IMG/VR virus record: IMGVR_UViG_3300031576_000014 | Span: 1 to 64,000 of that record | Origin: a virus | Length of the DNA stretch: 64,000 bases | Strand: one strand, 5' to 3' | Shown here: positions 1,055-57,169 of the stretch, piece after piece | Position numbering within the stretch: position 1 is the first letter of the stretch | Layout: each line of letters begins with the position of its first letter | The notes under the pieces: model-generated | The model's input: only the letters and a program-made list of their open reading frames with translations | Told to the model about the DNA's origin: nothing | The model's database searches: none | Program-made: the position numbers and the translations under genes

Positions 1055-1088
1055 GCGCACCACGTAAACCGCGGTTTACGTGGTGCGC
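1055..1088. repeat. 20-bp palindrome copy 1 (core 1062-1081), extended to a 34-bp perfect palindrome
   Basis: GCGCACC-ACGTAAACCGCGGTTTACGT-GGTGCGC. Confidence 0.97.
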
Positions 1089-1282
1089 TGGATCGGGCAA
1101 CGCGGGCACGGCACGCCCTCCCGTCCTTTCAGGTCGACGCGCACCCACGCGCGCCGCTTCCCTTTAGCCGCCGTCGCGCCGCACCACGAGCACATGAACC
1201 GTCTTGGACGTCCGAAACATCCCCAAACCTTCGGCGGTTCCCGGGACTTCGACGTCGACGCCCGCCAATGACCGCGCGTCAT
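1076..1282 (-). CDS. Small Cys-rich hypothetical protein
   Basis: CSWC and CPRC pairs; its TAA stop lies inside the palindrome. Confidence 0.4.
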   Translation of the reverse strand: MTRGHWRASTSKSREPPKVWGCFGRPRRFMCSWCGATAAKGKRRAWVRVDLKGREGVPCPRCPIQRTT

Positions 1283-1714
1283 CTACTTGCGGAACCCCTT
1301 CTCGCGCGCTGCCCGGGCGATCTGCTCGCGGAACCACTGCGACATCGTCTTGTTCTCCGACGACGCGATACGCAGGAGCAGCGCGTGGTCGCCGCGCGGG
1401 ACCAGGAACCCGACCTGCTGCACGTCCATCACCTCGCCACCGATCTCGACTGGTCTCGTCCTCGACTCTATCCCGTTCGCGCGCGCGCCCTTCGGCGGCG
1501 GGAGCATCTCCCACTTCGCGCCGCACTCGTCGCACTGGAAGACCCCCGTCCTCGTCTCGTCCTCGACGCGCAGGATCGGCCTGTCCGCGTACGGGTTCCC
1601 GGGCTCGTGGACCCGCCCTTTCGTCCTCCTGCGCGTCTGCGTCGAGGCGCACAGCGGGCACTCGCCCCTGCGCGCCCGCGCGTGCGCGACGTCGAGGACG
1701 GTGCCGCCCCTCAT
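1283..1714 (-). CDS. Zn-ribbon plus ribbon-helix-helix DNA-binding protein
   Basis: CPLC/CDEC pairs; C-terminal VGFLVP...LLRIASSENKTMSQWFREQI is RHH-like; ATGA overlap with upstream gene. Confidence 0.6.
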   Translation of the reverse strand: MRGGTVLDVAHARARRGECPLCASTQTRRRTKGRVHEPGNPYADRPILRVEDETRTGVFQCDECGAKWEMLPPPKGARANGIESRTRPVEIGGEVMDVQQVGFLVPRGDHALLLRIASSENKTMSQWFREQIARAAREKGFRK

Positions 1715-2067
1715 CGTCGCCCGAACTTCCGGAACGGCGCTCCCCGTCCGCGGCCAGGCCTCAGCTTCGCGATCCGGAAGACAGGGAACCACGTCGCAAC
1801 ATCGCGCAGCGCCTGGTAGAGCCTTGCGAAGACGAGGTTGTGCTCGGGGCCGCTTGCGTCGATCCGCACCTTCGCGAGGCGGCGCTGCCCGATCTTCCGG
1901 TTCTCCGCCCGCACCAGGAACGTGATCTCAGAGGAGCCGCAGGGGACGAGATCGTCGAGCAGCTCGACCTCGAACTCCGTGTCGCGGTATCCCGGCTGCC
2001 CGCGCACGAGATCGGTGATCGCACCGAGCGTGCCCCGCATGGTCGGACGGAAGTCGATCGGGTTCAC
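1711..2067 (-). CDS. Hypothetical protein
   Basis: Coupled ORF with protein-like composition. Confidence 0.6.
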   Translation of the reverse strand: MNPIDFRPTMRGTLGAITDLVRGQPGYRDTEFEVELLDDLVPCGSSEITFLVRAENRKIGQRRLAKVRIDASGPEHNLVFARLYQALRDVATWFPVFRIAKLRPGRGRGAPFRKFGRR

Positions 2068-2133
2068 GTGAAGTAGATCCCCGCAGCCGTCGCGAGCGCG
2101 GCGATGACTCCGATGACGGCCGCGCGAAGCACG

Positions 2134-2662: not shown

Positions 2663-3277
2663 CTACTCGTCGCTGGCGGTGTCGGTGTCGTTGTCGTTGT
2701 CGAGGTCGACGATCCGCGCTTGGACGCTCGTCGCGCCGCTCATCTTCCGGGCCGCGATCCTGTGGTGCCCGTCGTGGATGTAGCGCTTGCCGCCGACCTG
2801 CACGATGACCGGCTTGTCGACGAGCCCCCCGTGCCCGCTCGCGCGCGTGCCCTTCTCGACCGCGTCCGGGTCGTCCGCGTACTTGCTCAGGCGCTCGACG
2901 TTGAGCGTGCGCTGGATCGCGTTCAGCCCCTCAATCGGCACGTCCGTCGGCTTCGTCTTCTCCGCCCTCTTGAAGACTCCCTTGCCTTTGACCTGCTGGA
3001 CGTACTCCGCGCGGCTCGCGACCGGAAGGGGAACCCGGATGATGCCGGGCGTTCCCCCCGGCTCCGCCGCCCGGAGAGCGTTGGTGAAGACGTCGCCCGT
3101 CGCCTGCTGCTTCGCCCACGCGCGAAGGACGTCCGGCTTCGATGCCGTCTTCGCCTGCGGGTCCGGATCCTCGCTCGTCCCCTCCGGCTCCCCGTGCTCG
3201 TGCTCCTGCGGACTGGCCACGTTGTGATTCGCCGCTTGCATCGCGTCCATCGCGGCCGCCGCGTCTCGCCGACTCAT
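2663..3277 (-). CDS. ParB/Srx-like N-terminal domain protein
   Basis: PVIVQVGGKRYIHDGHHRIAARKMSG motif. Confidence 0.75.
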   Translation of the reverse strand: MSRRDAAAAMDAMQAANHNVASPQEHEHGEPEGTSEDPDPQAKTASKPDVLRAWAKQQATGDVFTNALRAAEPGGTPGIIRVPLPVASRAEYVQQVKGKGVFKRAEKTKPTDVPIEGLNAIQRTLNVERLSKYADDPDAVEKGTRASGHGGLVDKPVIVQVGGKRYIHDGHHRIAARKMSGATSVQARIVDLDNDNDTDTASDE

Positions 3278-3427
3278 CACATCGTCGCGTTTCACTTTCC
3301 CAGGTCTATCAATCCCCGGGCTTCGCCTCAAGACGCGACGGAGCGAGCGTGTGAAACGTCTCGGCCGCAAGCCTGACGAGCGGCTTTCCGCACTGCCTGC
3401 ACCGGCCCGTCATGCGTGCTTCTCCGC

Positions 3428-4654: not shown

Positions 4655-4891
4655 TCAAGCGACCTCCTCTAGGTTCCGCTCAATCCGCTCAAGCGCGCGC
4701 GGGGCAAGGCGGCCGGACCAGGAGACGACGTTGTGGAGGGTCTCGACGGACATCCGGAGAAGGCGCGCCGTCGCGCCCTGCCCGCGCAGGACGACCAGCG
4801 CTCGAACCTTCTTCTGCGTCTCCTCGGGCACGAGGACGGTCCTCTTGCGCGAGCCTGTGTTCCCCTTGGCGTGGTTCGTCTTTCTCAACAT
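4655..4891 (-). CDS. Small HTH DNA-binding protein
   Basis: GQGATARLLRMSVETLHNVV HTH-like segment; palindrome directly upstream. Confidence 0.55.
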   Translation of the reverse strand: MLRKTNHAKGNTGSRKRTVLVPEETQKKVRALVVLRGQGATARLLRMSVETLHNVVSWSGRLAPRALERIERNLEEVA

Positions 4892-4915: not shown

Positions 4916-4935
4916 ACGTAAACCGCGGTTTACGT
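4916..4935. repeat. 20-bp palindrome copy 2
   Basis: ACGTAAACCGCGGTTTACGT, intergenic. Confidence 0.97.
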
Positions 4936-4946: not shown

Positions 4947-5318
4947 TCAGATTGGCTTCTCCTTCGCCCCCAAAAAACGTGGAAGGTCACCGCGCGGGCC
5001 CGAGAAGAGGAGGCATCTGGCCGGACTCGTACGCGTGGGCGAGCTGCGGCGCGAGCTTCTCTCCTCGCGCGGGATCCTCTGATTCTTCATCACGCCGACG
5101 CCCTGCGCGACCGCCTCCTTCGCGACGAAGTAGCTCGCGACGGAGATGCTCGCGTTCGCCAGCTCCTCGCTCCCCGTCCCGCCGATCTCCATCGCCATCG
5201 CGATCGCCGCCGCGCGGAAGTTCGTCGCCGCAGCAGGACCGTATGTCGCCTGCCACATGCCCGCGCACCGCGCCTGGATCTCCTCCGGCGTCGTCTCCGC
5301 CTTCTTGTCCTCAGCCAT
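4947..5318 (-). CDS. Hypothetical protein (3' end uncertain)
   Basis: GAGGAG RBS; possible frameshift near 5060 with an alternative end at 4987. Confidence 0.55.
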   Translation of the reverse strand: MAEDKKAETTPEEIQARCAGMWQATYGPAAATNFRAAAIAMAMEIGGTGSEELANASISVASYFVAKEAVAQGVGVMKNQRIPREERSSRRSSPTRTSPARCLLFSGPRGDLPRFLGAKEKPI

Positions 5319-8919: not shown

Positions 8920-9423
8920 TCACGCAGCCTCTCCGGAAGACGGAACGGAGAAGATGTCGACGTAGCCGGCGAGGTCCGCCGAGTCGACGAACGCGGAGCC
9001 CAGCTCGCGCTCCTGGTCGCCCGTCAGCCTCGGCAGCTCACCTGACTCGTCGCCTTCCCCGGACGCTTCGATCGCCGCGAGAGCATGCCTGACCTTTCGG
9101 AGCGCTCCGTCGACGATCTGGCGCGCGCGCTCGCGCGTCATGTTCAGGAGCGCTCCCACCTCCTCGAGCGTCGCACCGCCCCGGTCCGCGACGTCGAGCG
9201 CGCACGAGTCCGTCATTTCGTCCGGCTCGAGGTCCGGGAAGTTCAGCTTCAGACCGCCCGTCCTCGCGACGACGTCGAGGTAGAGATTCCACCTGCACGA
9301 AATGTGCGGGCATGGCCTCGGCACTTCCCGGCAATCCCCGCGCGTGCGGGGCATCATGCGCGCGTCCGCCTCCGGGTAAAGGACGTGGAGACGCAAACGT
9401 TCCCGCTTCGACGCGCGCTTCAT
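8920..9423 (-). CDS. Sigma-70 region 4 HTH protein with Cys-rich N-domain (start may lie further upstream)
   Basis: [22 protein letters not shown]; PRTRGDC...[15 protein letters not shown]. Confidence 0.8.
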
Positions 9424-10422: not shown

Positions 10423-11004
10423 CTAGCCCAGCTCCGCTGGACGATCTTCCCCGAGGTTCATCCGCGGCTCCCGCAGCTTGAGCATCGTGAGCACCGCCGC
10501 AAGCAGCAGCGCCGCGAGCGCCGAAGCTTCCTCTCCTGGCTTCGCGTCGACGCGCATCGCCCAGCGTTGCTCCAGGTCCCAGCTCGCGTTCGGCGCGCCC
10601 GTGATGCTCCAGACGATCTTGGTCGCGCCGCTGTGCAGCGGCCCGCACTCGACGGAGAAGGGGCGAAAGATCTCCACCCAGTCACACTGAAGCTCCCAAG
10701 CCCGCGCGTAGCGCACCGCCGCGACGAAGAACCACTCCTCGTCCGTCTTCTCGGGGCCAGCAAACCGCCTCTGAAAGTGCCTGCTCATCAACCTCTCCGC
10801 CCGCAGGTGTTCGCCCATCTCCGCGGACAGGTCGCCGAATGTCGCCCGAAGCTCCGCGAGCGCGACGCGATCAGAGCGCCGCAGAAGCTGGTCGCTGTGT
10901 GTCTGCGGATGAAGGACCATCGGCCAGGATCCGACGACCTCGCCGCCCTCCTTCAACCGCAGGACGAGCGGCTTCTCCGCGATCCCGTGCTTGTAGACGG
11001 TCAC
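10423..11004 (-). CDS. Hypothetical protein
   Basis: GTGA-coupled ORF. Confidence 0.65.
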   Translation of the reverse strand: MTVYKHGIAEKPLVLRLKEGGEVVGSWPMVLHPQTHSDQLLRRSDRVALAELRATFGDLSAEMGEHLRAERLMSRHFQRRFAGPEKTDEEWFFVAAVRYARAWELQCDWVEIFRPFSVECGPLHSGATKIVWSITGAPNASWDLEQRWAMRVDAKPGEEASALAALLLAAVLTMLKLREPRMNLGEDRPAELG

Positions 11005-11831
11005 GCCTTCCTCTCCGCGTCCCGCTTCTCACGCCAGTCGAGCGCCGCCCGCACGTCCTGCATGCGAACATCCCTGTCCCTGTACGGCGCGAGACCGACC
11101 GCGTAAACGCGGTGAGCATTTGAGTCCGTGACGCGCCCCCAATCGTCGAAGATCTCGAACGCCTTCTCCGCCTCCATGCCACCGAGGGTCGACCAGCAGA
11201 TGTTGCCCTCGTCGAAGACCACGATGCCGAGCCGGTCCTTCCAAACGAGGTTGTGCATCTCCTCCTCGTGGAAAGCGACCTGCCTCTTCGCCTCCGCAAG
11301 CGCGCCCCGGTGATGATCGAGCTGCTCCATGACGAACGTCGTCCGGTCGTAGAGCCGGAGCACGTGGTGACGTCTCCGGTCTGGCCCGGGACTGTCGGGT
11401 CTCATCTTCGCGAATTGCTCGACCTGCTTCTCGTGCTCTTCGTCCGAGCACGCCTCGACGAGCCGGACCTCGTCGAGCGGGACGTAGCCGAAGGGCCAGC
11501 CGCACCAGAAGAACTCGTTCCTCTCGTAGTCCGCGTACGCGCAGACCAAGGTTTCCTTTTTGGGCACCTGTGAACGTTCGTCGGTTCGAAGTTGGACCTC
11601 GACGACGTCCCCGCAGCGGATGCGCGCCTGGTGCACCGGGCAGAAGCGCTCCCATGGCTTGAGGTTGTCCGGGTTCGTGTCGCGCGGAGGGGTGCTGACC
11701 CAAACGGTGACGGGCGCGTTGCACGTCGCGCAGACCGTGTGGACCTTCGAGAACGGTCCCTTGTGGGGATGCACGTCGGCGCGGTTCCGCTCAATCGTCT
11801 CGCGCACCTCAGGCTTCTCTTCTTCGGGCAT
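11001..11831 (-). CDS. Hypothetical protein
   Basis: 276-aa ORF downstream of palindrome copy 3. Confidence 0.7.
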   Translation of the reverse strand: MPEEEKPEVRETIERNRADVHPHKGPFSKVHTVCATCNAPVTVWVSTPPRDTNPDNLKPWERFCPVHQARIRCGDVVEVQLRTDERSQVPKKETLVCAYADYERNEFFWCGWPFGYVPLDEVRLVEACSDEEHEKQVEQFAKMRPDSPGPDRRRHHVLRLYDRTTFVMEQLDHHRGALAEAKRQVAFHEEEMHNLVWKDRLGIVVFDEGNICWSTLGGMEAEKAFEIFDDWGRVTDSNAHRVYAVGLAPYRDRDVRMQDVRAALDWREKRDAERKA

Positions 11832-11865: not shown

Positions 11866-11885
11866 ACGTAAACCGCGGTTTACGT
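11866..11885. repeat. 20-bp palindrome copy 3
   Basis: ACGTAAACCGCGGTTTACGT; supplies the TAA stop of ORF 11880-12140. Confidence 0.97.
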
Positions 11886-17550: not shown

Positions 17551-17874
17551 GCGGCGCTACTTGCCGCCGCGGGACCCTCAGGTCCCCGTGAGGTCGACGT
17601 CGGTCGCCGTGCTCAGCTGAACGAACTCCGCGGGCTTCTCGAGCTTCATCTCGATCGCCACGTGCCCGCAGACGGTGCACCAGGTCCGGCGCTCGACCAC
17701 CACCCCGGCGTACGGGTACGCCTGCTCGCTCGAGACGAGGGTGCTGTCGCCCGCCATGTCCTTGTGGTCGCAGGCGCCCTCCCTCGAAACAGTCGTGCTC
17801 TCGCGGTCCTCGTCCATCGTGGGGTCCCAGACGCAGTGTAAACCGCGGTCCGGACAGGTGCCAGCCGCGCTGCC

Positions 17875-17894
17875 ACGTAAACCGCGGTTTACGT
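17875..17894. repeat. 20-bp palindrome copy 4 (partial 12-bp copy at 17838-17849)
   Basis: CC-ACGTAAACCGCGGTTTACGT-GG; GTAAACCGCGGT just before it. Confidence 0.97.
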
Positions 17895-20874: not shown

Positions 20875-20894
20875 ACGTAAACCGCGGTTTACGT
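20875..20894. repeat. 20-bp palindrome copy 5
   Basis: Abuts cassette A. Confidence 0.97.
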
Positions 20895-42353: not shown

Positions 42354-42373
42354 ACGTAAACCGCGGTTTACGT
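42354..42373. repeat. 20-bp palindrome copy 6
   Basis: Intergenic, upstream of PolB. Confidence 0.97.
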
Positions 42374-42384: not shown

Positions 42385-43488
42385 CTATTCTTCGCGCCTG
42401 TCGACCGGGACGACGGAAAGCTCGAGCTGCCCGGTGCTGCTCTCCCGGACGGCGATCTCGAGGTGGACCCCGTTCGTCCCCTCGACGACGCCGTACGGTT
42501 GGTCGGCGAGCCTCCGCGCCGGCTTCGGCTCCTGGCCCCTCTTCGCCGGCCTCGCCCAGAGCTTGACGCGCTGGCGCTCCGCCGGGACGAGGATGGTGAG
42601 CGTCTTCTCCCGCCTGTTCTTCTCCGTCGACGCCCTCGTCGCCGCCTCCGTCCGCGCCCCCGCCTTCGCCTTGCGCCGCTTGCCCTTCTCGAGCTGCTCG
42701 CGCACCTGCTGGTGGGACGGCACCGCTCCCCCCTCCGTCAGCTTGCCCCGCGTCTCGACGTCGAGCTTGACCATCAGCCGGAGCGTCTTCCCGCTGTTGA
42801 ACTTCTTCGCCTGCTCCTCCGTGAAGTTCTCCGCAACCTCCATCAGCGAGTAGATGTACTGCGGCGTGAAGTTCAGCTCGCCCTCGCAGAACTGGTTGAA
42901 GCCCTTGTACTTCGGCTTCCCTGCGTCGTCGCTGCGCTGCTTCCAAAGCTCCGTCTTGTAGACGGCGCGGAAGATGTAGTCGCCGAGCTTCCACGCCCAG
43001 AGTGCCCCGTCGCCCTTCATCTGCTGGATGCGCGCGACCGCCTCGTCGAGGGCGCGCGTGCCCGCCGTCGTTCCTCCCCCGCCCGCGAGCGCGAGCGACC
43101 TCGTCTGCTGCTGCTTCTCCGCGTTCTCCATCTTCAGCTCCTCTTCTTCGGGTTCGTCGCCCGCGTCCTCGTCGCTTTCCTTCTCCCCGCTGAGCGGGGC
43201 ACGGTCCGCGTCGCCGCAGAACGGACAGTGGTCGAGCGCGGCGTCCGAGTCGCCCCCGCACCGGTCACACGTCGCGCGGTCCTCTGTCGGGATCGATTCG
43301 TAGAACTTCGCGAGGTCGGCCACCGCCCTCGCGACCCCGGCCTCGTCCGTCGAGATCTCCGTGCCCAGGGCGTCCAGACACGCCTTTTTGAGCACCTCGA
43401 CGGAGACCTCCCCGAGGTCGACGTCGGCGACCTTTCCATGAAGCTTCTTCTTCGCTGCGCTCGTTTTCTTCTTCCGGCGGCTGCTCAC
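42385..43488 (-). CDS. Hypothetical DNA-binding protein with Zn ribbon
   Basis: CDRC...CPFC; FNQFCEGELNFTPQYIYSLM HTH-like segment. Confidence 0.65.
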   Translation of the reverse strand: MSSRRKKKTSAAKKKLHGKVADVDLGEVSVEVLKKACLDALGTEISTDEAGVARAVADLAKFYESIPTEDRATCDRCGGDSDAALDHCPFCGDADRAPLSGEKESDEDAGDEPEEEELKMENAEKQQQTRSLALAGGGGTTAGTRALDEAVARIQQMKGDGALWAWKLGDYIFRAVYKTELWKQRSDDAGKPKYKGFNQFCEGELNFTPQYIYSLMEVAENFTEEQAKKFNSGKTLRLMVKLDVETRGKLTEGGAVPSHQQVREQLEKGKRRKAKAGARTEAATRASTEKNRREKTLTILVPAERQRVKLWARPAKRGQEPKPARRLADQPYGVVEGTNGVHLEIAVRESSTGQLELSVVPVDRREE

Positions 43489-44138
43489 GGGGACACCTCC
43501 ATCGCGATGCTCCTCACTATGCCGCGCACGTCCGCCCGCGCGTGCTCCCGGCTCTGCCAGCGGTAGCGGAGCCTTTCGCGGCAGTCGTCGTAGATCTCGT
43601 CCGCCGCGGCGTCCGCGTCGCGCGCGCCCGCGTACGCGCGCAGGACGTCCTGGAAAGGCAGCCTCGCTATCGCGCGCCGGAGGTCGAGCGCCTCCTCCTG
43701 GCCGTCCTCGACCGGGATCTCCACGTCCCCCGCCTCTTCTCCGGCCTTCGCAAGGCTGCTCATGGGTGCCTCGAACCGGGACGGACCCTTCCTCCGGTGC
43801 TGCTCCGCCCCGCGCGCCTTGTGCGCGACCTTGATCGTCGCCTTGATGGCCGCGAAAGAAACGAAGGACCAGGCCGGACAGCCGCGCGCCGCGTCGAACT
43901 TCCCGACCGCCTTCCACGCGAAGAAAAGCAGTTCCTGATAAAGGTCCTCCGCCGTCATCCAGGTCGGCAGACGGAACGAGCGCGCGATCGCGTGCGCGCG
44001 GCCCCTCCACGCCGGCGCTGTCCCGCGCACGAACTGCTCGAAGGTGACGGACCCGTCTCTCGCCCCGCGGGCGATCTCCTCGTTGTTCATCTTCCACGCT
44101 CCCGGCGCCTTGGGCGCCCTCTGCGAAAACGACTGCAC
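43485..44138 (-). CDS. Sigma-70 family sigma factor (region 2)
   Basis: AEDLYQE...WKAVGKFDAARG...FVSFA. Confidence 0.75.
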   Translation of the reverse strand: MQSFSQRAPKAPGAWKMNNEEIARGARDGSVTFEQFVRGTAPAWRGRAHAIARSFRLPTWMTAEDLYQELLFFAWKAVGKFDAARGCPAWSFVSFAAIKATIKVAHKARGAEQHRRKGPSRFEAPMSSLAKAGEEAGDVEIPVEDGQEEALDLRRAIARLPFQDVLRAYAGARDADAAADEIYDDCRERLRYRWQSREHARADVRGIVRSIAMEVSP

Positions 44139-44209: not shown

Positions 44210-44229
44210 ACGTAAACCGCGGTTTACGT
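44210..44229. repeat. 20-bp palindrome copy 7
   Basis: Intergenic, upstream of the sigma factor. Confidence 0.97.
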
Positions 44230-46007: not shown

Positions 46008-46030
46008 GCGTCGTTTCTCACCTGCAATGC

Positions 46031-48095: not shown

Positions 48096-48182
48096 GGGGC
48101 CCGGCGATCGTTGCCGCCAACGCGCGCCACTCGAACCACGACGCCTTGCTAACGCGCATCAGGTCGCGAAGCACGCCGAGCA

Positions 48183-48587
48183 TCAGGCCCAGGGATGCCT
48201 GACGGGGTCGGCGCTGGCCTGACCGTTCATCCAACCGAGCGCGAGCGCCGTCGATCGGACGACGCGCAGGAAGAGCAGGTCTTTCTCGCGCTGCTCCTTC
48301 AGGAGATCATCGTAGGGCATCATGCACGGGTGTTCCTTCTTCTCCGGATCCTTGACCGGCCCGTGCGTCCAGCCGTCCGCGATCTTCTGCGCGAGCCAGC
48401 CCGCATGCGACTCCTCCGGCGTGTTGCCTGCGAGCGCCCCTTTGACGCCCGCGATGGCGCTGTCCTTCTGCCATTGCGGCGCGGCCTCCCACGCTGCCTG
48501 GCTCGCGTCGCCGATCGCCAGGCAGTACGCCCGGTTGACCTCGTGCGCGGCCCGCGCGCACGCTTCGATCTTCTTCTCGTCGTTCAT
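48183..48587 (-). CDS. RyR-domain protein
   Basis: HAGWLAQKIADGWTHGPVKDPEKKEHPCMMPYDDL. Confidence 0.85.
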   Translation of the reverse strand: MNDEKKIEACARAAHEVNRAYCLAIGDASQAAWEAAPQWQKDSAIAGVKGALAGNTPEESHAGWLAQKIADGWTHGPVKDPEKKEHPCMMPYDDLLKEQREKDLLFLRVVRSTALALGWMNGQASADPVRHPWA

Positions 48588-49099
48588 CTCGTCTTCTCCT
48601 TCGCGCCTCGCCTCGCTTTATCAAGCCGATAGTCCGTGAGGATCGCCCCGGAGAAGAGCAGGCGCCAGCCGAGCCGGCCTCCCGGCCTCCCGTTCTCGCG
48701 GCGCCACTCCTCGCGGTCCTTCTCCCGCAACCATGCCCAGCGGACGAAGTCCGCCATCGCGTCCGCGTCGCCGTCGAACTGCGAGCGGAGCATGCGCGCG
48801 GCCGCCGCGGCGGCGTCCATGCGCTCGCGCGGCCCGACCTCGTCCGCCACGCCGTAGACCTTCCCGTGGAGCATCGCGCAGAGGGCGACGAAGTGCTTGC
48901 CCGTCGCCCCCGCGAAGCTCTCGATCCGGATCATCCCCTCGACGTCGCGCTCCGCGGAGAGGACGGTCGAGCGGCTCATCGCCCGCCGCTTCTCCCTCCT
49001 GCGCCGGAAGAAGTCGTTCTTCTCGACGTCGCTCGGCTCCTCGTCCGACCAGTGGTCGGCTGCCGGCGGAGGGACGCGCGCGCCTGCGGACACCGTCAC
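48584..49099 (-). CDS. Hypothetical protein
   Basis: Coupled ORF. Confidence 0.55.
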   Translation of the reverse strand: MTVSAGARVPPPAADHWSDEEPSDVEKNDFFRRRREKRRAMSRSTVLSAERDVEGMIRIESFAGATGKHFVALCAMLHGKVYGVADEVGPRERMDAAAAAARMLRSQFDGDADAMADFVRWAWLREKDREEWRRENGRPGGRLGWRLLFSGAILTDYRLDKARRGAKEKTR

Positions 49100-49647
49100 G
49101 ACCGCTCGCCGTACGTGTCGCCGATCGCCTTCAGGTACGCCTTCCACTTTCGGGGAATCTCTTCGTCGCGGAAGGCGCGCAGGTCGACCATCAGGCGCGC
49201 CATCGCCTGCGCGTGCGTCTCGCCCGGCCGGAGCGTCGTCGACCCCTCGAACGGGCCGACCTCGAAAGAATGGAACTGCTTCGGGCTGAAAAGTTCCTTC
49301 CCCCAGACCACGCGCACCACGTTCGCCGGATCGGGCGCGTCCGTCTTCGCATGGTGCTGCTTGTCCGACGCGCGGGAATCTTCGGGCCGAGATGCTGTTG
49401 CGTTGCCTTCGTGGCCGCACGGCCACGCCACCACGGAGCCTCTCGTGGTCGTGAGGCGCTGCCCGCAGCGCCCGCACTCCGGCTTCCCGTCCGCGCTCAA
49501 GACGGCCCCCGGCGGCAAGCTGTCGAACGCGTACGGCGGGTCCTTGCGATCCTCGAAGAGCGATCCGGTCCTGGCCTCGGCCGGGAGCGACCCGATGTTC
49601 GCCGTGTTCGTCTCCGCCGCGCCGCCGCTGTTCTTCTTCCTTCGCAT
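49096..49647 (-). CDS. Hypothetical protein
   Basis: Coupled ORF, CGRC...CGH. Confidence 0.6.
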   Translation of the reverse strand: MRRKKNSGGAAETNTANIGSLPAEARTGSLFEDRKDPPYAFDSLPPGAVLSADGKPECGRCGQRLTTTRGSVVAWPCGHEGNATASRPEDSRASDKQHHAKTDAPDPANVVRVVWGKELFSPKQFHSFEVGPFEGSTTLRPGETHAQAMARLMVDLRAFRDEEIPRKWKAYLKAIGDTYGERS

Positions 49648-49656
49648 GGTTCCCTT

Positions 49657-51735
49657 CTATGCCGCCGCCGCGCGCCTCTTGATGTACTCCTTCGCGGGCG
49701 TCCATCCGCCGTCCTCGAAGACGACGACGCGGGGGAACCACGTCTTCAGGTTCTTCAGGTGCTTCGGGAAAACGTGCCTGTCCCAGAGATAGTAAAACCT
49801 CGCGCCTCCCTTGCCCGTCGACGTCCGGCAGAAGCGGCCGCGCACCTGCCGGAAGAGCTGGCGGTTCGCCCCGATCGGCGTCGCGCCGATTCCCGTCCCG
49901 ATCTTCGGGACGTCGATGCCCGTGCCGAACGCCTGGTACGTAGCGGAACCGGCCTTGAGCGTGCCGGCCTTCAGCCCGGACTTCGTCCTCTCGAACTCGA
50001 CGGCGAAGTCCGGGCCGCCGATCAGGTAGCCACAGGGCGTTCCCATCGCGGAGATCGCCTGCCCGAAAGTCATCACGTGCTCGCGGTACTGCGCGAGCAC
50101 GACGACCTGCTCGCCCTCCGCGATCGCCTCCCTGGCGAGCCGGAGCACGAGCCGGTTCCGGTCGTCGTCGCCCATCATCTCGACGAGCAGACGGTGCCTG
50201 TCGACCCCGCGGTCCTCCCCGCCACGTAAACCGCGGTTTACGTCGTCGAAGCCCCCGTTCTCCGCGTCCGGGAGCCCGTACCAGTCCGCGCGGAAGTCCG
50301 TCGGCACGACCCGGACCTCGACGTCGAGGATGTGCCCGCTCTCGACAAGCTCCTTCTCGTCGACCTTCGCGGCCGTCGGACCGAACAGCTCCTTGATCAG
50401 GAACTCCTTCCGGTCCTTGCGACGCACGTCCGCCGTCGCGCCGATCCTGTACCTGGCCGGCAGCGGGTCGATTGCATCGAAGAGCGTCTTGCTTGCGAAG
50501 AGATGGCAGTTGTGAACGAGCACGCCGCCCACGACGAAGACACCACCCTCCGTTTCTAGATTGCAGACCGACGCGATCTCCGCGATGAAGCTTCGATCGA
50601 TCCGCGCTCGGCCACGTCGAAGTCGAACTCCCCCCGGAAGCGGAGCACCAGCCAGCCCTTCGATTCGAGGAAGCAGGTTTTTCGTTCGTCGGCCGCCCCG
50701 CGGCTCTGCGCGATCATCGCCGGCCGTCGGGACCTCCACCGCTGACCCGATGAAAGCGCTGGCGCCCACTTCGCGCGCATCGACGGATCTTTCCAAAGCT
50801 CTTTGAACATGAAGAGGATCACACCAAAGAACGTCATCGCAGCGAACACTTGAGACGCCGACCCATCCTTCACCCTCGACCGCAACCGGATGTTCGTCCG
50901 TCGCTCGCCATCCGGCCAACCGGACAGCCACGACGGCACGGCGTCGAGAAACGACGAGCACCGAACCTCCCGCCGCGACGCGTTCGCCAGGCCGGACCTC
51001 GCCGATCGATTTGAGCGTTCCGTCTTCCATCAGAACAGGCGCTCTCTCTTCAAAACACTCGTCCGCGAAGACCGCCCCGAAGTAGCGCTGGACGCCTGCC
51101 TCGCCCGAGCACTTCGCAAGCGTCTTGCCCATCGCGAGCGTCACGGGCCGCAGTCGCTGCGTCTGCCCCTGCACGACGCCGATCTGGTCCGCCCGCATGC
51201 CGAGCTGCTCGCCGAGCTGCTCCCGCCACTGCCGGAGCAAGGCCGACGCATGCACGACGATGAGCACCGGGCACCGCACGCGCGGGATGAGCGAGATCAA
51301 TGCGCACGTTTTTCCGCTGCCTTGCGGAGCTTCGATCAGGCAGCTCTCGCGCCCGAACGCGAGGTCGGCGAGCCGCGCCTGGTACGGGTAAAGCTCCCAG
51401 GCGTACTCCCCCGGCATGTTCGACTCCGCCGCGTCGACGAACCCTGTGTTCCTCTGGTCGCGGACCGTCCAGTCGATCTGATGCTCGTCGAGCACCTCCC
51501 GCACCTTCGCGATCCCTCCGCGCGGGACGGAGAGGAATCGGTTCTTCCCGTCCTTCTCCTTCCGCCAGGTCACGATCGTTCTCGGCTCGTCCCAAACCGG
51601 GAGCCCGAGCCGGCGCTTCATCGCGTGCTGCGGGTTCTTGTGCTCGAAACGCTCCCGGAGCGCTGCCTGCGCGTTCTCCGGCACGTCGTCGACGCAGAGC
51701 CGCGTCCGCGAGTCGACGACGATCAGGGCTGCCAC
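49657..51735 (-). CDS. Superfamily 2 (DExH) helicase, intein-containing
   Basis: APQGSGKT, ADE-[intein]-CH, ATA, GTGIDVP, QVRGR. Confidence 0.9.
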   Translation of the reverse strand: MAALIVVDSRTRLCVDDVPENAQAALRERFEHKNPQHAMKRRLGLPVWDEPRTIVTWRKEKDGKNRFLSVPRGGIAKVREVLDEHQIDWTVRDQRNTGFVDAAESNMPGEYAWELYPYQARLADLAFGRESCLIEAPQGSGKTCALISLIPRVRCPVLIVVHASALLRQWREQLGEQLGMRADQIGVVQGQTQRLRPVTLAMGKTLAKCSGEAGVQRYFGAVFADECFEERAPVLMEDGTLKSIGEVRPGERVAAGGSVLVVSRRRAVVAVRLAGWRATDEHPVAVEGEGWVGVSSVRCDDVLWCDPLHVQRALERSVDAREVGASAFIGSAVEVPTAGDDRAEPRGGRRTKNLLPRIEGLAGAPLPGGVRLRRGRARIDRSFIAEIASVCNLETEGGVFVVGGVLVHNCHLFASKTLFDAIDPLPARYRIGATADVRRKDRKEFLIKELFGPTAAKVDEKELVESGHILDVEVRVVPTDFRADWYGLPDAENGGFDDVNRGLRGGEDRGVDRHRLLVEMMGDDDRNRLVLRLAREAIAEGEQVVVLAQYREHVMTFGQAISAMGTPCGYLIGGPDFAVEFERTKSGLKAGTLKAGSATYQAFGTGIDVPKIGTGIGATPIGANRQLFRQVRGRFCRTSTGKGGARFYYLWDRHVFPKHLKNLKTWFPRVVVFEDGGWTPAKEYIKRRAAAA
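50224..50243. repeat. 20-bp palindrome copy 8, inside helicase CDS
   Basis: Read in frame as DVNRGLR. Confidence 0.97.
50509..51057 (-). mobile_element. Mini-intein (183 aa) in helicase Walker B motif
   Basis: Starts CFEERAPVLMEDG, block B ATDEHPV, ends VLVHN before Cys. Confidence 0.9.
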
Positions 51736-51925
51736 GCTCTCCTCTTTGCCGCCCGCTTCTTAGGTTCTTCTCCCCGCTACGTGCGCGCGTCCCCGCGCCC
51801 GCGTGTTCCGTAGGAACACGCAAGGATCTCTTTCTGATCGAGATCGATCGTCTCTAAATAATACACAGCTAAGCATAGTGGCGCGCGCGCACGCGCGCGT
51901 CCGTGATCCCGGGCTCGAAGTCCAG

Positions 51926-52306
51926 CTAGTTCTTCGGCGTGGGCGGAACAGCCTCTTTCTCCAGGTCCTTCTGCTCGGAGACGAGCGCGAGAAGGGCAAG
52001 AAAGCGGGGGGGGTTTCCACCGAGCGCGGCCTTGATGACGACGGCGTAGAGGCCCATCGCGAAGAGCGCCGCCTCGAAGCCGTCGCGCAGCGCTTCCGGC
52101 CACGGCTCGCCCCCGGAGACCGCGACGAGCGCGCCGTACGCGAGCCCGAGAAGGACGACGGCGAACGGTCTCCAGCGCTCCGGCACCGTGAGCGGGAAGC
52201 GGCTGTCCTTCTTGAGCATGCGCGCGAGCCAACCGATGACGACGACGGCGAGCGCGAGATAGTTGTGCGACTTCGCGAGGGTCCAGACCTGGAGAAAGAG
52301 CGACAT
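51926..52306 (-). CDS. Membrane protein, holin-like
   Basis: Three hydrophobic segments; TATCAT-N6-ATG. Confidence 0.55.
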   Translation of the reverse strand: MSLFLQVWTLAKSHNYLALAVVVIGWLARMLKKDSRFPLTVPERWRPFAVVLLGLAYGALVAVSGGEPWPEALRDGFEAALFAMGLYAVVIKAALGGNPPRFLALLALVSEQKDLEKEAVPPTPKN

Positions 52307-52323
52307 CCCCGGATGATACGCCG

Positions 52324-52806
52324 TCAATGCTGGGAAACGAGGGCCGTGACGACGACGCCCGCGAGCGTCGCGAAGATCCCGAGAAGAGCCGCGATGGCGG
52401 TGATCCGCTTCACGCGCGCGTCCGAGAGGACGGCGACCTCGTTCTGGCGGACCTTCTCCTCCTCGATCGTGAGCCGCCTGTCCTTGCGGTCCGTCTCCTC
52501 GCGGGCTGCGCGGCCGCGAAGCTCGCCCCGCGCCTCCGCGACCTCGACGAGCAGCCTCGTCTGGTTCTCGTTCTGCGCGTGTATCTGGTCGACCTTCCCG
52601 GCGATCTCCGCGACCTTCGCCCCGAGCGGCCTGACGGCCTCGTCGACGTGGCGCGCGGCCGAGTCGGTCATGGCGCGCACCTCGTGCGCCGTCTCGATCC
52701 CTGCCGTGCGCAGCTCGGCGCGGAGGTCCCCGATCGCCTGCCTGAGGCCGGCGATCTGCCGTTCGTGCTCGCGCAGACGCTTCTCGTGTTCGTCGATCGT
52801 CGCCAT
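52324..52806 (-). CDS. Coiled-coil protein with C-terminal TM helix
   Basis: Heptad pattern and hydrophobic C-terminus. Confidence 0.6.
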   Translation of the reverse strand: MATIDEHEKRLREHERQIAGLRQAIGDLRAELRTAGIETAHEVRAMTDSAARHVDEAVRPLGAKVAEIAGKVDQIHAQNENQTRLLVEVAEARGELRGRAAREETDRKDRRLTIEEEKVRQNEVAVLSDARVKRITAIAALLGIFATLAGVVVTALVSQH

Positions 52807-52824
52807 CGGCGCATCAACGCGATC

Positions 52825-54453
52825 CTACATCCTCCAGCCGAGGACGCGCACGAAAGCGGACGCGGCCGCCGTCACGAAGCCCGCGTTCGAGGAGAGGATC
52901 GTCACGCGGATGTTCCCCGGCGACGTCGACGGGTAGAGCGTGTTGATCGGGACCCAGCGCAGGAGCCTGTGCGAGCCCGCGCCGACGGGCTCGTTCGCTT
53001 GCCCCTCGCTCTCGAGGAGCGCCGCGATCTGTGTGCCGACCCCGCCGTTCCCGAACAGCCTGATCTCGTGCAGGTAGTTTCCTCCCCCAGCCGCGACCGT
53101 GATCGAGTTGCGCATCTCGAGATAGACCGCGCGCGCGTTTGCCGGGTAGTGGACGTTCGCCGTCAGGTCGAAGATCCAGGTCACGCTGCCGGCCGCCACG
53201 ACGTTCGACGTTGCCGCCGCCTCGATCGGCTGCACCGTGGTGGCGATGTTCACGAGGATCGCTCCTGTTTCGTCGGAGAAGTAGCCGACGAGGAGCGGTC
53301 CGATGTCGACCCAGCCGGCGCCGACGCAGACGCCGTTCGCCGTCGTGCCCGCGAGGCCGGTCGAGGTCGGCAGGGCGATCGCCGCGGTCGGCTGCCCGTC
53401 CTCCTTCGGCCCGACGGACGAAACAACAGGGATGCCCCTGGGCGAGCGCGGCTTCCGGACGCCTGCCGCCGCCGTCGTGTAACGGGCCCAGCGCGGGAGC
53501 CCGAAGGGCGTCAGGAGGTACCAGTACCAGGGTCGGCCAACGACGGGGGCGAACCCGGACTCCTGGTTGAGCACGTCCGTCGCCGTCATGAAGTCCCCGT
53601 CCGGAACCGCCTGGCGCGTCCCGGAACGAACGCGCCCGCCGAGCCGCCGCCCGTCGATCGATTCTGCCTCGACGAGCCCCAAGACCGGCGTCGCTCCGAG
53701 CGCGGTGATCGCCTGGACGACCTGCTTTCTCTGGAGAGTGCGGTTCTGCGTCAGGTCGAACGGGGCGCGCACGCGGTCCGAGAGGAGCGGCCGCACGTCC
53801 CAGAACATCATGTCGTCGCACGACGCGGACGCGACCGGGTTGCGGACCACGGCGAGAGGGAGCCACCCCGCCGCCGTGCCCGGGAACCCGCCTCCCGGCG
53901 CGCCGGCGCGCATGCGGAGCGTTCCCGGGACGGCGTTCGCCACGCGGGCGCGGAGGGCCTTCGTCAGGGGCGTCGCGGAGAAGAGGCCAGTCGTCGGGTT
54001 GAAGACGTCGCGGTTGTCCGTCTCCGCGATCTCTTCGACGACCTGGCACTCGACGACGTCGATCCGGTCGCCCGGCCCGGGGTTCGTCGTCTCGAGCAGC
54101 GTCCCCAGCGCGGTGATCCCCGCGTCCCTGACGTACTTGTAGTTCGACGCGTCCGCCGCGAGGTCCGGCGCGATCGCGAGGAGGACGCCCGGGTCGACGA
54201 GCAGGCTGAACGACGCAAGCTGCGGCCGAACAAGGAGCCCGTTGATGATCTCCGCGCGGAGCGGGTTGCCGAGCCCGGAGAACTCCGTGACGACCGCCCC
54301 CGCGTCGAGGTCGTCGTTCGCCTGGACGTCGAGCATGTAGCGGAGAAGCTCCGCCTGATCGTTGCCGGCGAAGGCTTGCAGCCGGTTGATGTCCGTGGAG
54401 ACCGCCCGCTCCTGCGTGTTGATGACCACACTTTTCCACCCACCACCGGGCAT
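52825..54453 (-). CDS. Virion tail/baseplate protein
   Basis: Follows baseplate genes; DRIDVV motif typical of tail-fibre N-termini; AGGAG RBS. Confidence 0.7.
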   Translation of the reverse strand: MPGGGWKSVVINTQERAVSTDINRLQAFAGNDQAELLRYMLDVQANDDLDAGAVVTEFSGLGNPLRAEIINGLLVRPQLASFSLLVDPGVLLAIAPDLAADASNYKYVRDAGITALGTLLETTNPGPGDRIDVVECQVVEEIAETDNRDVFNPTTGLFSATPLTKALRARVANAVPGTLRMRAGAPGGGFPGTAAGWLPLAVVRNPVASASCDDMMFWDVRPLLSDRVRAPFDLTQNRTLQRKQVVQAITALGATPVLGLVEAESIDGRRLGGRVRSGTRQAVPDGDFMTATDVLNQESGFAPVVGRPWYWYLLTPFGLPRWARYTTAAAGVRKPRSPRGIPVVSSVGPKEDGQPTAAIALPTSTGLAGTTANGVCVGAGWVDIGPLLVGYFSDETGAILVNIATTVQPIEAAATSNVVAAGSVTWIFDLTANVHYPANARAVYLEMRNSITVAAGGGNYLHEIRLFGNGGVGTQIAALLESEGQANEPVGAGSHRLLRWVPINTLYPSTSPGNIRVTILSSNAGFVTAAASAFVRVLGWRM

Positions 54454-54504
54454 GCCGTGTCTCCTGTCTCCGGGGATGTTACTCGGACTCGGTCGCGCTC
54501 ACAC

Positions 54505-57129
54505 CTAGAGGTTGAACCTCGTCGCGAGGTACTGCTCGACGAGCATCCGGTCCGAGTCGAGGAGCGCCTTGCTGTAGACGATCATCGCCGCGAGTTCGTG
54601 GTCGAGGATGTTCAGTCCGACACCCTCGCCCCCGAGGAAGAAGTCGGCCGTGATCGTTGCGGTGCCTGGCACGGCCGTCGTGTTGTCCGTGAGGACCTGC
54701 GCGGCACCGTCGAGCCACGACGCCTGCGTCGCGTGCGAACCGTCGAAGCGGTACGTCCAAACGTGCCCGTTCGTGTCCGGGATCGTGGCGCCCCCGTTCG
54801 CCGCCCAGGATGAGTCGCCTCCCGGGGGCGCGCCCGACGTTCGCGCCTCCTGGAACGAGGCGAAGCCCCCGTGCCGGGCGAAGCTGTAGTCGGCGACGCC
54901 CTGCACCTGTGAAAAGATCCGGCCGGCGACGCCAGACCGCTTGAGCACGACGAAGACCGTGCGCGGGCCGATCGCACCACCCGCCGCCGCCGTGATGCGC
55001 AGGACCGCGGACCCCGCGGCCAGGATCGTGATCGTCGGTTGCCCGCCCGCCCACGCCTGCACCGGGTTCAGGACGGGCTGTGAGCCGCCCCCCGGCACCG
55101 TCGCGTGCCGGAGGTTCCCGCTCTTGTCGTTGACCTGCGAGACGTCCGGCGAGAGGACGACGCTGTCCATCTCGAACCACGCCCAGAGGCCGGCGAGCTT
55201 CGCCGGCGTGAACGTCAGCTCGTCGTCGATGAACAGGCTGTAGCCGACCCCTCCCGCCTTCGCAGCGTCGAGCGACGCCGCGACCCTTTTGTAGAGCGTC
55301 GCTGCCGCCTGCGGGAACCCGTCGAAGAACGCGCTGAACGGCGACGCGTCGTACGCGCCGAGCGAGTAGCCGGGCGATCCCGCGGGCAGCCCTGCGTAGA
55401 AGAAGCCGAACTCGCCCGCGTCGCTGCGCGGGACGCCGACGAAGAAGAACGCGCGGAACTGCTCGTAGTCGAGCCAGACGTGGAAGCGCCGCGCCGCGAA
55501 GGACGGGCTGGGCGTGACCGACGTGATCCCGTCGAAGAACGCGCCCGTGTGCAGGCCGAGGATCTTCAGGCCGAGCGGAAGCGTGGAAGGGAACGTGCCC
55601 GCGCGCCTGATGAACGTCAGCGTCGTCGGGCCCGCACCGTCCTGCCTGCCGACCCAGCCGAGGGCGTAGAGGTTGTTCGCCGCGTCGATCACCTGCGCGG
55701 CCTCCTGGAAGGCGAACGCGCTCGGGCCGAAGGCGTGGACGACCGCGAACGTGTCGAAGTCGTAGGCGTCGTTGGCGCCTCCTCCGGGGACGAAGTGAGG
55801 GGGGCTCACGTCGCCGTCGAAGTAGAAGCCCGGGAAGTCGAGCGAGCCGACCTCGCGGAAGCTCCAGGGGAGCGTGCCGAGCGCGCGGTTCAGGGCTCTC
55901 CGTATCGCGTTCGGCGAGACCACGTCGGCGATCTGCGCGACCCGCTTCCTGTAGGAGTCGTCCGTCTCGCCAGAAGACCGGTCGATCGCCCTCTCCGCCC
56001 CTGCTTCGTCGAGCATCGGCGACTTCCCCCCGGCAGGGCTCGCCGCGTTCGTGCAAGAGAGGTCCCAGTCGTCGACCCAGTCGAGGATCCTCCAGGTCGC
56101 CGCGGCGACCTCGCTCGAGAAGGTCTCCGAGAAAGAGACGCGGGAGACCGTCAGGGTCGCGCCGCTCGCGGCCCCCGTGACCGTGTTGCCGACCCCGAAC
56201 GGGGGCGCGAGGCTCCCGTCGAGGAAGATGAACGTCAACTTCTTCGTCCCGGCCGCCGTGCGCGTGCCGAGCGCCGTCCCCTCGACGATGGTGGTCGGCC
56301 CGTTCTTGACGATCACCTTCTCCCCGACCGCGAACGCGCCCGCGAAGACCGTCGCCTCGACGGAGACGTCGGGCTCGAGGAGAACGGCGCTGCCGACCGG
56401 GGGCAGGCCAGAGGGCTGCGGCGCGAAGAACGCGTCGACGCGGCCGACCTTGCCCGCGTTCGCCCCCGCCGTGAAGAGCAACGCCTGCCCAACGTGCTCC
56501 GGGATGAACATGTCCGTCTTGTTCGGTGCCGTGACCTTGATCTGCGCGGCAGGCACAGACCCGAGCGGCGCCGGGTAGGTCGCAACGACGGTCGCCGTGT
56601 CGTTCGTGAAGTTCGCGCCCGGCTTCTCGACCTCGACGATCGTCCCCGGCATCGGGTTGTCGTACCCGCGCCCCGGCCTGGCCGCCTCGCCCGGAACGGT
56701 GAACGGCCCCGCATCCCCCGGGTGAAAGACGAGGTCCTCCTTGAGCACGTAGCGCCGCCCCGTGACGACCCGCTCGCCTCCCTGCGGGCCCCAGTCCGTC
56801 TGCACCTCGTCGGCGAAGACCTGGCCCGCCCGGAGCCTTAGGGGGCGCTCCAGGAGCTTCGAACGCGCGATCGAGAGGACGACCTGGCTCTTCGCCTCGC
56901 CCGCCGCCGGCGCCGCCGTCTGACCGCTCCACGGCTGGACGTACAGCTCCTGCGTCGTCTCGTCGATCGCGCGCGAGACGCGCGCGAAGGTCGCCCACAT
57001 CTGCCCGTGGGCCTCGAGCCCTTCCCCGTCGCCGGCCGCGAGGAAAGGGTCGCGGTAAGACGGGTCGAGCGCGGCCGACCAGATCGCCTGGAAATCCTCC
57101 GCCGTCAGGGGCCCGGTCTTCAGCGGCAT
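54505..57129 (-). CDS. Baseplate wedge / tail-fibre protein with LamG-like C-terminus
   Basis: LDEAGAERAIDR..GETDDSYRKR; C-terminal DKSGNLRHA...VEQYLATRF. Confidence 0.72.
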   Translation of the reverse strand: MPLKTGPLTAEDFQAIWSAALDPSYRDPFLAAGDGEGLEAHGQMWATFARVSRAIDETTQELYVQPWSGQTAAPAAGEAKSQVVLSIARSKLLERPLRLRAGQVFADEVQTDWGPQGGERVVTGRRYVLKEDLVFHPGDAGPFTVPGEAARPGRGYDNPMPGTIVEVEKPGANFTNDTATVVATYPAPLGSVPAAQIKVTAPNKTDMFIPEHVGQALLFTAGANAGKVGRVDAFFAPQPSGLPPVGSAVLLEPDVSVEATVFAGAFAVGEKVIVKNGPTTIVEGTALGTRTAAGTKKLTFIFLDGSLAPPFGVGNTVTGAASGATLTVSRVSFSETFSSEVAAATWRILDWVDDWDLSCTNAASPAGGKSPMLDEAGAERAIDRSSGETDDSYRKRVAQIADVVSPNAIRRALNRALGTLPWSFREVGSLDFPGFYFDGDVSPPHFVPGGGANDAYDFDTFAVVHAFGPSAFAFQEAAQVIDAANNLYALGWVGRQDGAGPTTLTFIRRAGTFPSTLPLGLKILGLHTGAFFDGITSVTPSPSFAARRFHVWLDYEQFRAFFFVGVPRSDAGEFGFFYAGLPAGSPGYSLGAYDASPFSAFFDGFPQAAATLYKRVAASLDAAKAGGVGYSLFIDDELTFTPAKLAGLWAWFEMDSVVLSPDVSQVNDKSGNLRHATVPGGGSQPVLNPVQAWAGGQPTITILAAGSAVLRITAAAGGAIGPRTVFVVLKRSGVAGRIFSQVQGVADYSFARHGGFASFQEARTSGAPPGGDSSWAANGGATIPDTNGHVWTYRFDGSHATQASWLDGAAQVLTDNTTAVPGTATITADFFLGGEGVGLNILDHELAAMIVYSKALLDSDRMLVEQYLATRFNL

Positions 57130-57141
57130 GGCGATCCTCCT

Positions 57142-57169
57142 CCCCACGTAAACCGCGGTTTACGTGGGG
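57142..57169. repeat. 20-bp palindrome copy 9 (core 57146-57165; 28 bp perfect)
   Basis: CCCC-ACGTAAACCGCGGTTTACGT-GGGG next to the RBS of the wedge gene. Confidence 0.97.

Follow-up and report, generated by a model that had tools for sequence, protein, structure and literature searches.

A lineage of uncultured phages carries a short perfect palindrome in many identical copies per genome, with a sequence that is private to each genome. Here we describe this element for the first 64 kb (hereafter the window) of IMGVR_UViG_3300031576_000014, a 94,582-bp IMG/VR virus record which is rated complete and represents an uncultured phage from a cave metagenome. The palindrome of this phage, ACGTAAACCGCGGTTTACGT, is 20 bp long. 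It is a real, selected cis-element, present lineage-wide in versions private to each genome, and the comparative result itself, i.e. lineage-wide private palindromes with concerted symmetric change, is new. With regard to function, we infer with middling confidence that the palindrome is bound by a phage-encoded homodimeric DNA-binding regulator and serves as its operator at transcription-unit boundaries.

Number and authenticity of the palindrome copies

The 20-mer occurs 12 times without any mismatch in the complete genome, nine times in the window (Table 1) and at positions 76990, 82528 and 94146. A first-pass annotation of the window, made from the sequence alone, had reported nine exact cores at 1062, 4916, 11866, 17875, 20875, 42354, 44210, 50224 and 57146, and all nine were recovered. 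Near-variants of ACGTAAACCGCGGTTTACGT with one to three mismatches were not found in the window, and a shuffled-sequence control yielded 0 copies in 100 shuffles, so that none is expected by chance. Half of the copies (6/12) share the 24-mer form CC-ACGTAAACCGCGGTTTACGT-GG, and the dyad of some copies extends further, as had been described, the longest extension being 7 bp on each side at copy 1062. The partial copy reported at 17838 is real (GTAAACCGCGG, 17838-17848), the stretch between 20.9 and 42.3 kb is indeed free of copies, and target-site duplications are absent, in agreement with the earlier statement that none is shared among the copies.

The first-pass annotation had considered two circumstances that would deprive the repeat of biological meaning, and neither applies. 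The copies are not assembly or adapter artefacts, because an independent Logan contig from the source sample, the cave metagenome, spans positions 41618-58000 with zero differences at ~83x depth and includes four copies internally. Nor is the palindrome a randomly placed host repeat, as exact ACGTAAACCGCGGTTTACGT is absent from 185,579 species genomes; it is also absent from JGI metagenome contigs and from other IMG/VR contigs, and a database search with its 14-mer core returned single chance matches only. Counting copies in the full genome, in relatives and in hosts, which had been proposed as a check, gave 12 copies, private versions (see below) and none, respectively.

Genomic placement

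The genome has a G+C content of ~67%, and gene calling based on G+C content at third codon positions predicted ~126 genes, which cover ~90% of the genome and are essentially all encoded on the minus strand. Eleven of the 12 copies are located between co-directional genes, with a non-coding share of the genome of only ~9-10% (binomial P ~1e-10). The earlier placement of eight of the nine window copies at gene junctions holds, the exception being copy 50224, which lies inside the helicase open reading frame (ORF) 49657-51735. Two copies had also been thought to supply a TAA stop codon; as the minus strand encodes essentially all real genes, this concerns only plus-strand shadow ORFs, and no real gene ends within any copy. 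Likewise, copies are located upstream of the peptidase, PolB and sigma factor genes as proposed, whereas the baseplate-wedge gene (57287-58357) had been misplaced, since copy 57146 is downstream of it.

In the direction of transcription (minus strand), copies 4916, 17875, 20875 and 42354 are preceded by a stop codon at a distance of 5-11 nt, the next start codon follows the copies after 16-71 nt, and GG opens the downstream flank in 10 of 12 cases. Some copies abut a Shine-Dalgarno sequence, for example copy 57146, which is followed by GGAGGAGG and, 16 nt after the copy, by an ATG. The genes downstream of copies include two paralogous papain-like peptidase genes, PolB, the sigma factor gene, a gene encoding 874 amino acids (aa) and the gene after the major capsid gene. 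In the duplicated upstream regions of the two peptidase genes the 20-mer has stayed the same, with the flanks differing at 46 of 226 columns (P ~0.01).

Table 1. Palindrome copies in the window, the candidate reader and associated features
Feature	Position	Strand	Context
Copy 1	1062..1081		48 nt upstream of papain-like peptidase gene (start 1013, minus); dyad extended by 7 bp per side
Promoter-like CTGACG-17-TACGCT	1020..1048	minus	13 nt downstream of copy 1; ATG 6 nt after -10 (leaderless geometry)
Copy 2	4916..4935		stop of gene 4947-5318 11 nt before; start of gene 4655-4891 24 nt after
Copy 3	11866..11885		start of gene 11001-11831 34 nt after
Partial copy GTAAACCGCGG	17838..17848		overlaps TACACT -10-like box
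Copy 4	17875..17894		10 nt past stop of basic 213-aa core gene 17905-18546; gene 17578-17817 57 nt on
Copy 5	20875..20894		5 nt past stop of gene 20900-22039; heads 229-nt AT-richer gap with a different dyad family
Copy 6	42354..42373		11 nt past p367 stop; PolB ATG (42331) 22 nt on
Copy 7	44210..44229		71 nt past stop of gene 44301-44843; sigma factor start 71 nt on
Copy 8	50224..50243		in-frame (D-V-N-R-G-L-R) in hypervariable linker of helicase gene 49657-51735
Copy 9	57146..57165		121 nt past baseplate-wedge stop; then GGAGGAGG and ATG of 874-aa gene 16 nt on
p367	42385..43488	minus	367 aa, core gene of the lineage, candidate reader
Phage sigma factor (Sigma70_r2)	43485..44138	minus	core gene; 4-nt overlap with p367 start
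Accessory ParB N-terminal-domain protein	30085-30705		only ParB_N protein; weakly detected in just one compared relative
Accessory 167-aa protein	8920-9423		Sigma70 region-4-type helix-turn-helix (32.7 bits), in only three relatives; second sigma-like or LuxR-like DNA-binding protein
Accessory 94-aa helix-turn-helix protein	22069-22353		DNA-binding candidate
Accessory weak ParBc_2-like protein	2663-3295		DNA-binding candidate

The paralogous papain-like (Peptidase_C1) genes are found at 165-1013 of the window and at 93249-94097 of the genome, which places them ~1.5 kb apart if the genome is circularly permuted; the duplication of their upstream regions comprises ~150 nt and includes the palindrome and the leaderless promoter CTGACG-17-TACGCT. 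A second, unrelated dyad family, TGCTATGACA-N4-TGTCATAGCA, occupies three AT-richer gaps between genes (20712-20850, 24086-24200 and 63064-63180), with three boxes per gap, and one of these cassettes lies directly downstream, in transcription order, of copy 20875. This family was not found in any relative examined, and its boxes are probably operators of an accessory regulator.

Private palindromes in related phages

No close cultured relative was detected by megablast, and the best PolB match is only ~25% identical. The major capsid protein, in turn, has hundreds of metagenomic homologues, 673 in the search made here, and about half of the 69 IMG/VR capsid loci compared contain a repeated perfect palindrome of their own within 21 kb. 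Fourteen relatives were taken in full or in part, 13 of them near-complete, and 12 of these 13 carry a private perfect palindrome of 20-24 bp in 8-26 copies, such as TTGGAAACCCGGGTTTCCAA in G003 and G004, ACCGCACGGCGCCGTGCGGT in G007, ACGCCGGATCGATCCGGCGT in G008 and AGATAACACCGGTGTTATCT in G010. Loci anchored on PolB added a dozen further variants, and partial contigs carry their own versions too. The lineage comprises more than 30 distinct variants, all of which are symmetric through the central bases. About 65% of 236 sites are outside gene calls, which are crude, compared with ~10% non-coding DNA. Palindromes are missing from G013, whose genome is 97% complete. The orthologous sites are also free of them in G011, a 30-kb fragment of the closest relative, whose capsid protein is 81% identical.

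Two observations speak to the forces that act on these sequences. First, G003 and G004 have the identical 20-mer despite a median protein identity of ~38%, and this 20-mer gave two single-copy matches only, in metagenome-assembled genomes. Its preservation across such a deep divergence indicates purifying selection. Second, a comparison of orthologous loci, which the first-pass annotation had suggested, demonstrated that the sites are altered in situ, by symmetric changes, and not through fresh insertions. Among phages that are 75-80% identical at the DNA level, loci L111 and L130 differ symmetrically at positions 4/17 and loci L118 and L119 at positions 2/19, with all copies alike in each case. 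A single symmetric position likewise separates the G008-type site (ACGCCGG...) from the L130-type site (ACGTCGG...). The positions of the sites turn over between genomes.

Association with promoters

A -10-like motif (TANNNT) is located 0-9 nt downstream of the palindrome in 28 cases and on the mirror side in two. In the phage analyzed here, copies 1062, 76990, 82528 and 94146 are followed 13-14 nt later by a -35/-10 pair (TTGTGC or CTGACG, 17 nt, TACGTT/TACGTA/TACGCT), which puts the dyad centre near -60, and this -35/-10 pattern has no other matches genome-wide. A leaderless arrangement with the dyad over the -35 region is seen in G004, G008, G009, L120 and L130, where the palindrome is followed by 1-8 nt, a -10 box, 6-9 nt and the ATG or GTG. 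In G002, five of 18 such boxes are located behind a palindrome; 17 of the 18 read GGCATAAG and the remaining one GGTATAAG. The promoter motifs are strand-biased and are also present without a palindrome. Because of this, and because only about a quarter of the palindromes adjoin a recognizable -10 box, palindrome and promoter are separate modules which are often juxtaposed, an organization more in keeping with an operator or modulator than with a core element of the promoter. A reading of the palindrome as part of a promoter recognized by the sigma factor only was rejected since promoters occur without it, as was an extracytoplasmic function (ECF) sigma promoter (AAC...CGT), whose spacing does not fit.

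Two side observations concern the promoters themselves. In G002 (IMGVR_UViG_3300050821_016057, loci L136-L140) ~17 GGCATAAGG boxes are found 6-8 nt before a leaderless ATG with a strand bias of 19 versus 5, and this box is probably a phage-specific promoter consensus. Furthermore, the preferred -10-like hexamer differs between relatives, with TAAGCT in G004, CATAGT in G008 and TAGC(C/G)T in G009.

Double-stranded DNA or RNA as the form that is read

A perfect palindrome located between cistrons might act on the RNA level, as a hairpin with a stem of 8-10 bp and a 4-nt loop that serves as terminator or attenuator without a U-tract, as stabilizer of mRNA 3' ends, or as processing site. We consider this unlikely, despite several features that would be expected of such a hairpin: many copies are located 0-12 nt past a stop codon, extended stems are present in some copies (the region of copy 76990 folds at -31.7 kcal/mol), and some copies of G007 are flanked by A- and T-tracts. 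In addition, six genomes contain a copy right after the major capsid gene, the position at which G011 has a canonical terminator with a GC stem and TTTT. The core hairpin is weak, however (-8.0 kcal/mol), no U-tract follows the copies, none of them was called terminator-like, and the palindrome has no match in Rfam. Copies located in-frame in the helicase, PolB and SbcC genes would truncate the respective mRNAs. The missing U-tract and the G-rich downstream flank (GG in 10/12 copies) do not fit an intrinsic (Rho-independent) terminator in particular.

Four lines of evidence speak for a homodimer that reads double-stranded DNA rather than for an RNA hairpin. Every variant is symmetric through its central bases, a property that the loop of a hairpin does not require. 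The copies are identical within a genome, while structure alone would tolerate variation and explains the private sequences of different genomes just as little. Orthologous sites differ by symmetric substitutions common to all copies. Finally, the broken pairs of imperfect copies are not biased toward G·U: sense-strand G·U pairs are not significantly more frequent than A·C pairs (26 versus 20, P=0.46), and mismatches other than wobble pairs are just as common (45).

The first-pass annotation had listed several options, namely a site for a dimeric protein, a parS-like site, a site for recombination or packaging, an RNA hairpin and a selfish element. The first is now the best supported because of the central symmetry, the identity of copies within a genome, the concerted symmetric change, the absence from hosts, and the existence of a ParB/KorB-like core protein with a predicted homodimer; the hairpin and the selfish element are weakened, and a true partition (parS) system lacks support, given that neither ParA nor an integrase was found. 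A site for a host factor of the LexA-box or LacI type, considered in view of the GAAC-N4-GTTC and central-CG likeness, was set aside since the motifs are private per phage and absent from host genomes.

A candidate reader of the palindrome

The leading candidate for a protein that reads the palindrome is p367, an assignment that we put forward tentatively and regard as possible rather than probable. Its gene is located directly upstream of PolB and, together with the sigma factor gene, is flanked by copies 44210 and 42354; a copy just upstream of the sigma-p367 operon is found in ~4-5 of 13 genomes. According to the alignment, p367 consists of an N-terminal helical domain, an invariant CxxC..CxxC zinc ribbon, an acidic linker, a conserved central helical domain and a C-terminal beta domain. 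In a search of the full library with the AlphaFold model (mean predicted local distance difference test score, pLDDT, 76.6), the top five structural matches of residues 164-271 were KorB, a KorB-operator complex, ParB-parS, Spo0J and SopB (Z 7.0-4.9), the best being KorB with Z 7.0 and a root-mean-square deviation of 2.5 A over 92 residues. With a model of the domain only, the sole Foldseek matches with TM 0.4-0.6 were Spo0J, Noc, ParB and KorB, which are not significant. Modeling also predicts that p367 forms a homodimer: residues 142-367 gave an ipSAE of 0.66 compared with 0.00 for the best control, a value reached by 20 of 30 solved homo-pairs and by 1 of 23 single chains, with a contact agreement of at least 83% and a pLDDT of at least 77. 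Furthermore, the distance between palindrome half-sites correlates with the distance between p367 sequences (r=0.32, P=0.001), also as partial correlation on PolB (r=0.30, P=0.0015), and hardly with PolB itself (r=0.12).

In the mechanism that we propose, a phage-encoded homodimer, for which p367, co-transcribed with the phage sigma factor, is the candidate, would read the palindrome on double-stranded DNA as a dispersed cis-element that is effectively 24 bp long in half the copies. The sites would mark the borders of transcription units, where a stop codon lies just ahead of the palindrome and a promoter or ribosome-binding site follows closely. The bound dimer would modulate transcription there, either as a repressor or tuner of the adjacent promoter or as an insulator between units. 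Its mode of action might resemble that of a global set of operators like KorB-OB on RK2, and the private palindrome of each phage would co-evolve with its reader.

Several points weigh against this interpretation. The fold match of p367 is modest, as a Z of 7 is common among helical domains and Foldseek E values exceed 1, and no match to KorB or ParB was obtained for p367 at the sequence level. The palindrome distance also tracks the sigma factor, if less closely (r=0.25, P=0.011), and p367 and sigma are not told apart by mutual information at the level of columns. G013 keeps p367 yet has no palindromes; G003 and G004 share their palindrome, but have p367 proteins with only 26% identity, and none of their proteins stands out by its similarity between the two genomes. 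With regard to the sites, many promoters of the kind described above lack a palindrome and only some palindromes have one nearby, the position relative to the promoter varies by genome (centre near -25 in some, near -60 here), and some copies lie inside essential genes.

A gene that is present in all palindrome-bearing genomes and missing from G013 was not found; the genes for sigma, p367, the 213-aa protein and a 90-aa protein all occur in G013. G013 (IMGVR_UViG_3300043446_003867) and a distant subclade of the lineage (L232, L236-L240, L244) are without any repeated dyad, and in the p367 of these members a C-terminal motif that is otherwise nearly invariant, A-K-R-L-A-D-x-P-x-G, is degenerate. 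The corresponding comparison of the motif with the presence of palindromes (14/11 versus 3/12) is a crude test, and the association is weak and confounded by phylogeny.

Other proteins with possible DNA-binding domains are accessory (Table 1), and most small proteins of the phage have no match in Pfam or PHROGs. Accessory genes furthermore encode a uracil-DNA-glycosylase-superfamily protein (27255-27731) and a thymidylate kinase (24444-24986).

A more far-reaching proposal is that of a private 'address code' across this lineage of ~90-100-kb phages, in which a CTPase-less protein of the ParB/KorB fold, co-transcribed with sigma, would read a genome-specific palindrome of 20-24 bp at transcription-unit boundaries, with the reader and its ~10-25 sites drifting together. 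We regard this as speculative and rather doubtful; if true, each phage would have an orthogonal global control circuit, which could possibly serve to discriminate its own DNA from that of co-infecting relatives.

Copies within genes and remaining explanations

Copies within genes are found in several members of the lineage. The same helicase linker holds a palindrome in the phage analyzed here and in G001, in each case the phage's own version, six genomes have a palindrome in the variable C-terminal tail of PolB, and in G010 the palindrome replaces a conserved PolB motif. In an SbcC-like gene of G003 (IMGVR_UViG_3300032893_000015; oriented position ~52056) the palindrome encodes L-E-T-R-V-S-N and adds four residues, immediately ahead of the DEPFG motif, to a segment that is otherwise conserved, which is a clean example of a site that arose inside an essential gene. 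Sites therefore arise wherever they are tolerated, which keeps a selfish or recombinational component under consideration.

In this explanation the palindrome would be a cassette, sometimes with a -10 box, that is spread selfishly or by recombination and homogenized by recombination or template switching, similar to promoter-early stem-loop (PeSL) or repetitive extragenic palindromic (REP) elements, with any regulatory effect being secondary. Apart from the copies within genes, the turnover of site positions between genomes is in line with this, as is the repeat unit of G008 and G010, which reaches 32-38 nt by an asymmetric extension and takes in a -10-like box, and recombination between such repeats is documented in Cluster O phages (PMC4351075). 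However, neither an integrase nor a transposase of the REP-associated tyrosine transposase (RAYT) or Y1 type was found (Y1/HUH transposase, PF01797: no match at E<=1), and target-site duplications are missing. The symmetric change of orthologous sites in place and the persistence of the same 20-mer in G003 and G004 also argue against a mobile cassette, and we judge it improbable as the explanation for the palindrome.

Quite improbable, too, is a parS-like, non-transcriptional role, in which a ParB-fold protein would be loaded or anchored at the sites for genome organization, plasmid-prophage segregation, packaging or replication. The central domain of p367, whose best predicted structural matches are ParB-family DNA-binding domains, would be compatible with such a role, as would the dispersal of sites regardless of gene class. 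Dispersed centromere sites exist in the phage-plasmid N15. However, searches of the genome gave no AAA_31/ParA match for a ParA-type ATPase and no Phage_integrase match, an N-terminal ParB_N (CTPase) domain was not found in p367, and the sole ParB_N protein of the phage is accessory (Table 1). For such a role one would also not expect so strong a bias toward intergenic DNA or a directional link to promoters. The palindrome also differs from the canonical parS sequence (TGTTTCACGTGAAACA) on inspection, as the first-pass annotation had stated.

With respect to the helicase gene (49657-51735), we also noted a mini-intein that splits the DE-CH motif, with C...HN/C boundaries and a weak match to a Hint domain. 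The 950-aa terminase large subunit (12717-15569) and the DNA methyltransferase (28438-29826) both match phrog_36001, which suggests that they hold further intein-like inserts.

Dispersed invariant palindromes are known from a few actinophage clusters, and their function has been unexplained for a decade. The lineage described here offers dozens of natural variants, including private sequences, single symmetric substitutions and members free of the element, as well as one concrete candidate reader, and the question has therefore become directly testable. If the pairs of reader and sites are real, they would represent a set of orthogonal operator/regulator pairs of 20-24 bp and a case study of how a regulator and ~20 sites can change their specificity together.

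Comparison with known systems

Repeated intergenic stem-loops juxtaposed with promoters are known as PeSL cassettes from T4-type phages, where they could mediate modular shuffling. In contrast to the palindromes described here, PeSL stem-loops are neither perfect palindromes nor invariant, and promoter and palindrome are separable in the present lineage.

A precedent for many sites served by one repressor is provided by the stoperators of Cluster A mycobacteriophages, asymmetric 13-bp sites that are oriented with transcription in temperate phages (PMC6550527). Like the palindromes, stoperators occur in dozens, in short intergenic regions of a genome that is transcribed largely one way, and they co-evolve with the phage's own repressor, as is proposed here for palindrome and reader, which gives each phage a private specificity. 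The sites analyzed here differ in that they are perfect palindromes, and neither an integrase nor a recognizable immunity repressor was found in the genome.

The nearest mechanistic model is KorB of the IncP plasmid RK2, a dimer with a ParB-type helix-turn-helix and, at its C terminus, a domain for dimerization, which acts as global transcriptional repressor (PMC11790492). In both cases identical copies of one palindrome, the operator in RK2, are scattered across a mobile replicon (12 over 94.6 kb here) at variable distances from promoters. The resemblance of p367 to KorB is at the level of the predicted fold, with modest scores, and p367 has a zinc ribbon instead of the N-terminal CTPase (sliding-clamp) domain. 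Furthermore, the site is unrelated to the KorB operator sequence TTTAGCGGCTAAA, and no ParA/IncC partner or KorA-like co-repressor was found in the phage.

Among published cases, the closest are dyad repeats of 17 bp in Cluster O mycobacteriophages (TGTTCGG-N3-CCGAACA, 34 copies), whose function is unknown and for which dimeric regulators were suggested by the authors (PMC4351075), and repeats of 18 bp in Microbacterium Cluster EG phages (GATCAACC-N2-GGTTGATC), likewise of unknown function (PMC7302621). Similar to the palindromes described here, these repeats consist of many invariant copies of one short inverted repeat per genome, are absent from host genomes, and mostly occupy short gaps between genes, 14-30 bp upstream of a start codon, with some copies inside genes; sites for dimeric proteins were considered there as well. 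However, their arms of 7-8 bp are separated by a spacer of 2-3 bp, whereas the palindromes analyzed here are spacerless, have arms of 10-12 bp and are unrelated in sequence. They are, moreover, found in an unrelated, uncultured host and lineage, that of a myovirus-like phage with PolB and a sigma factor. Above all, the Cluster O and EG repeats are conserved within one cluster, whereas the present palindromes are private to each genome across a deep lineage and change symmetrically and in concert.

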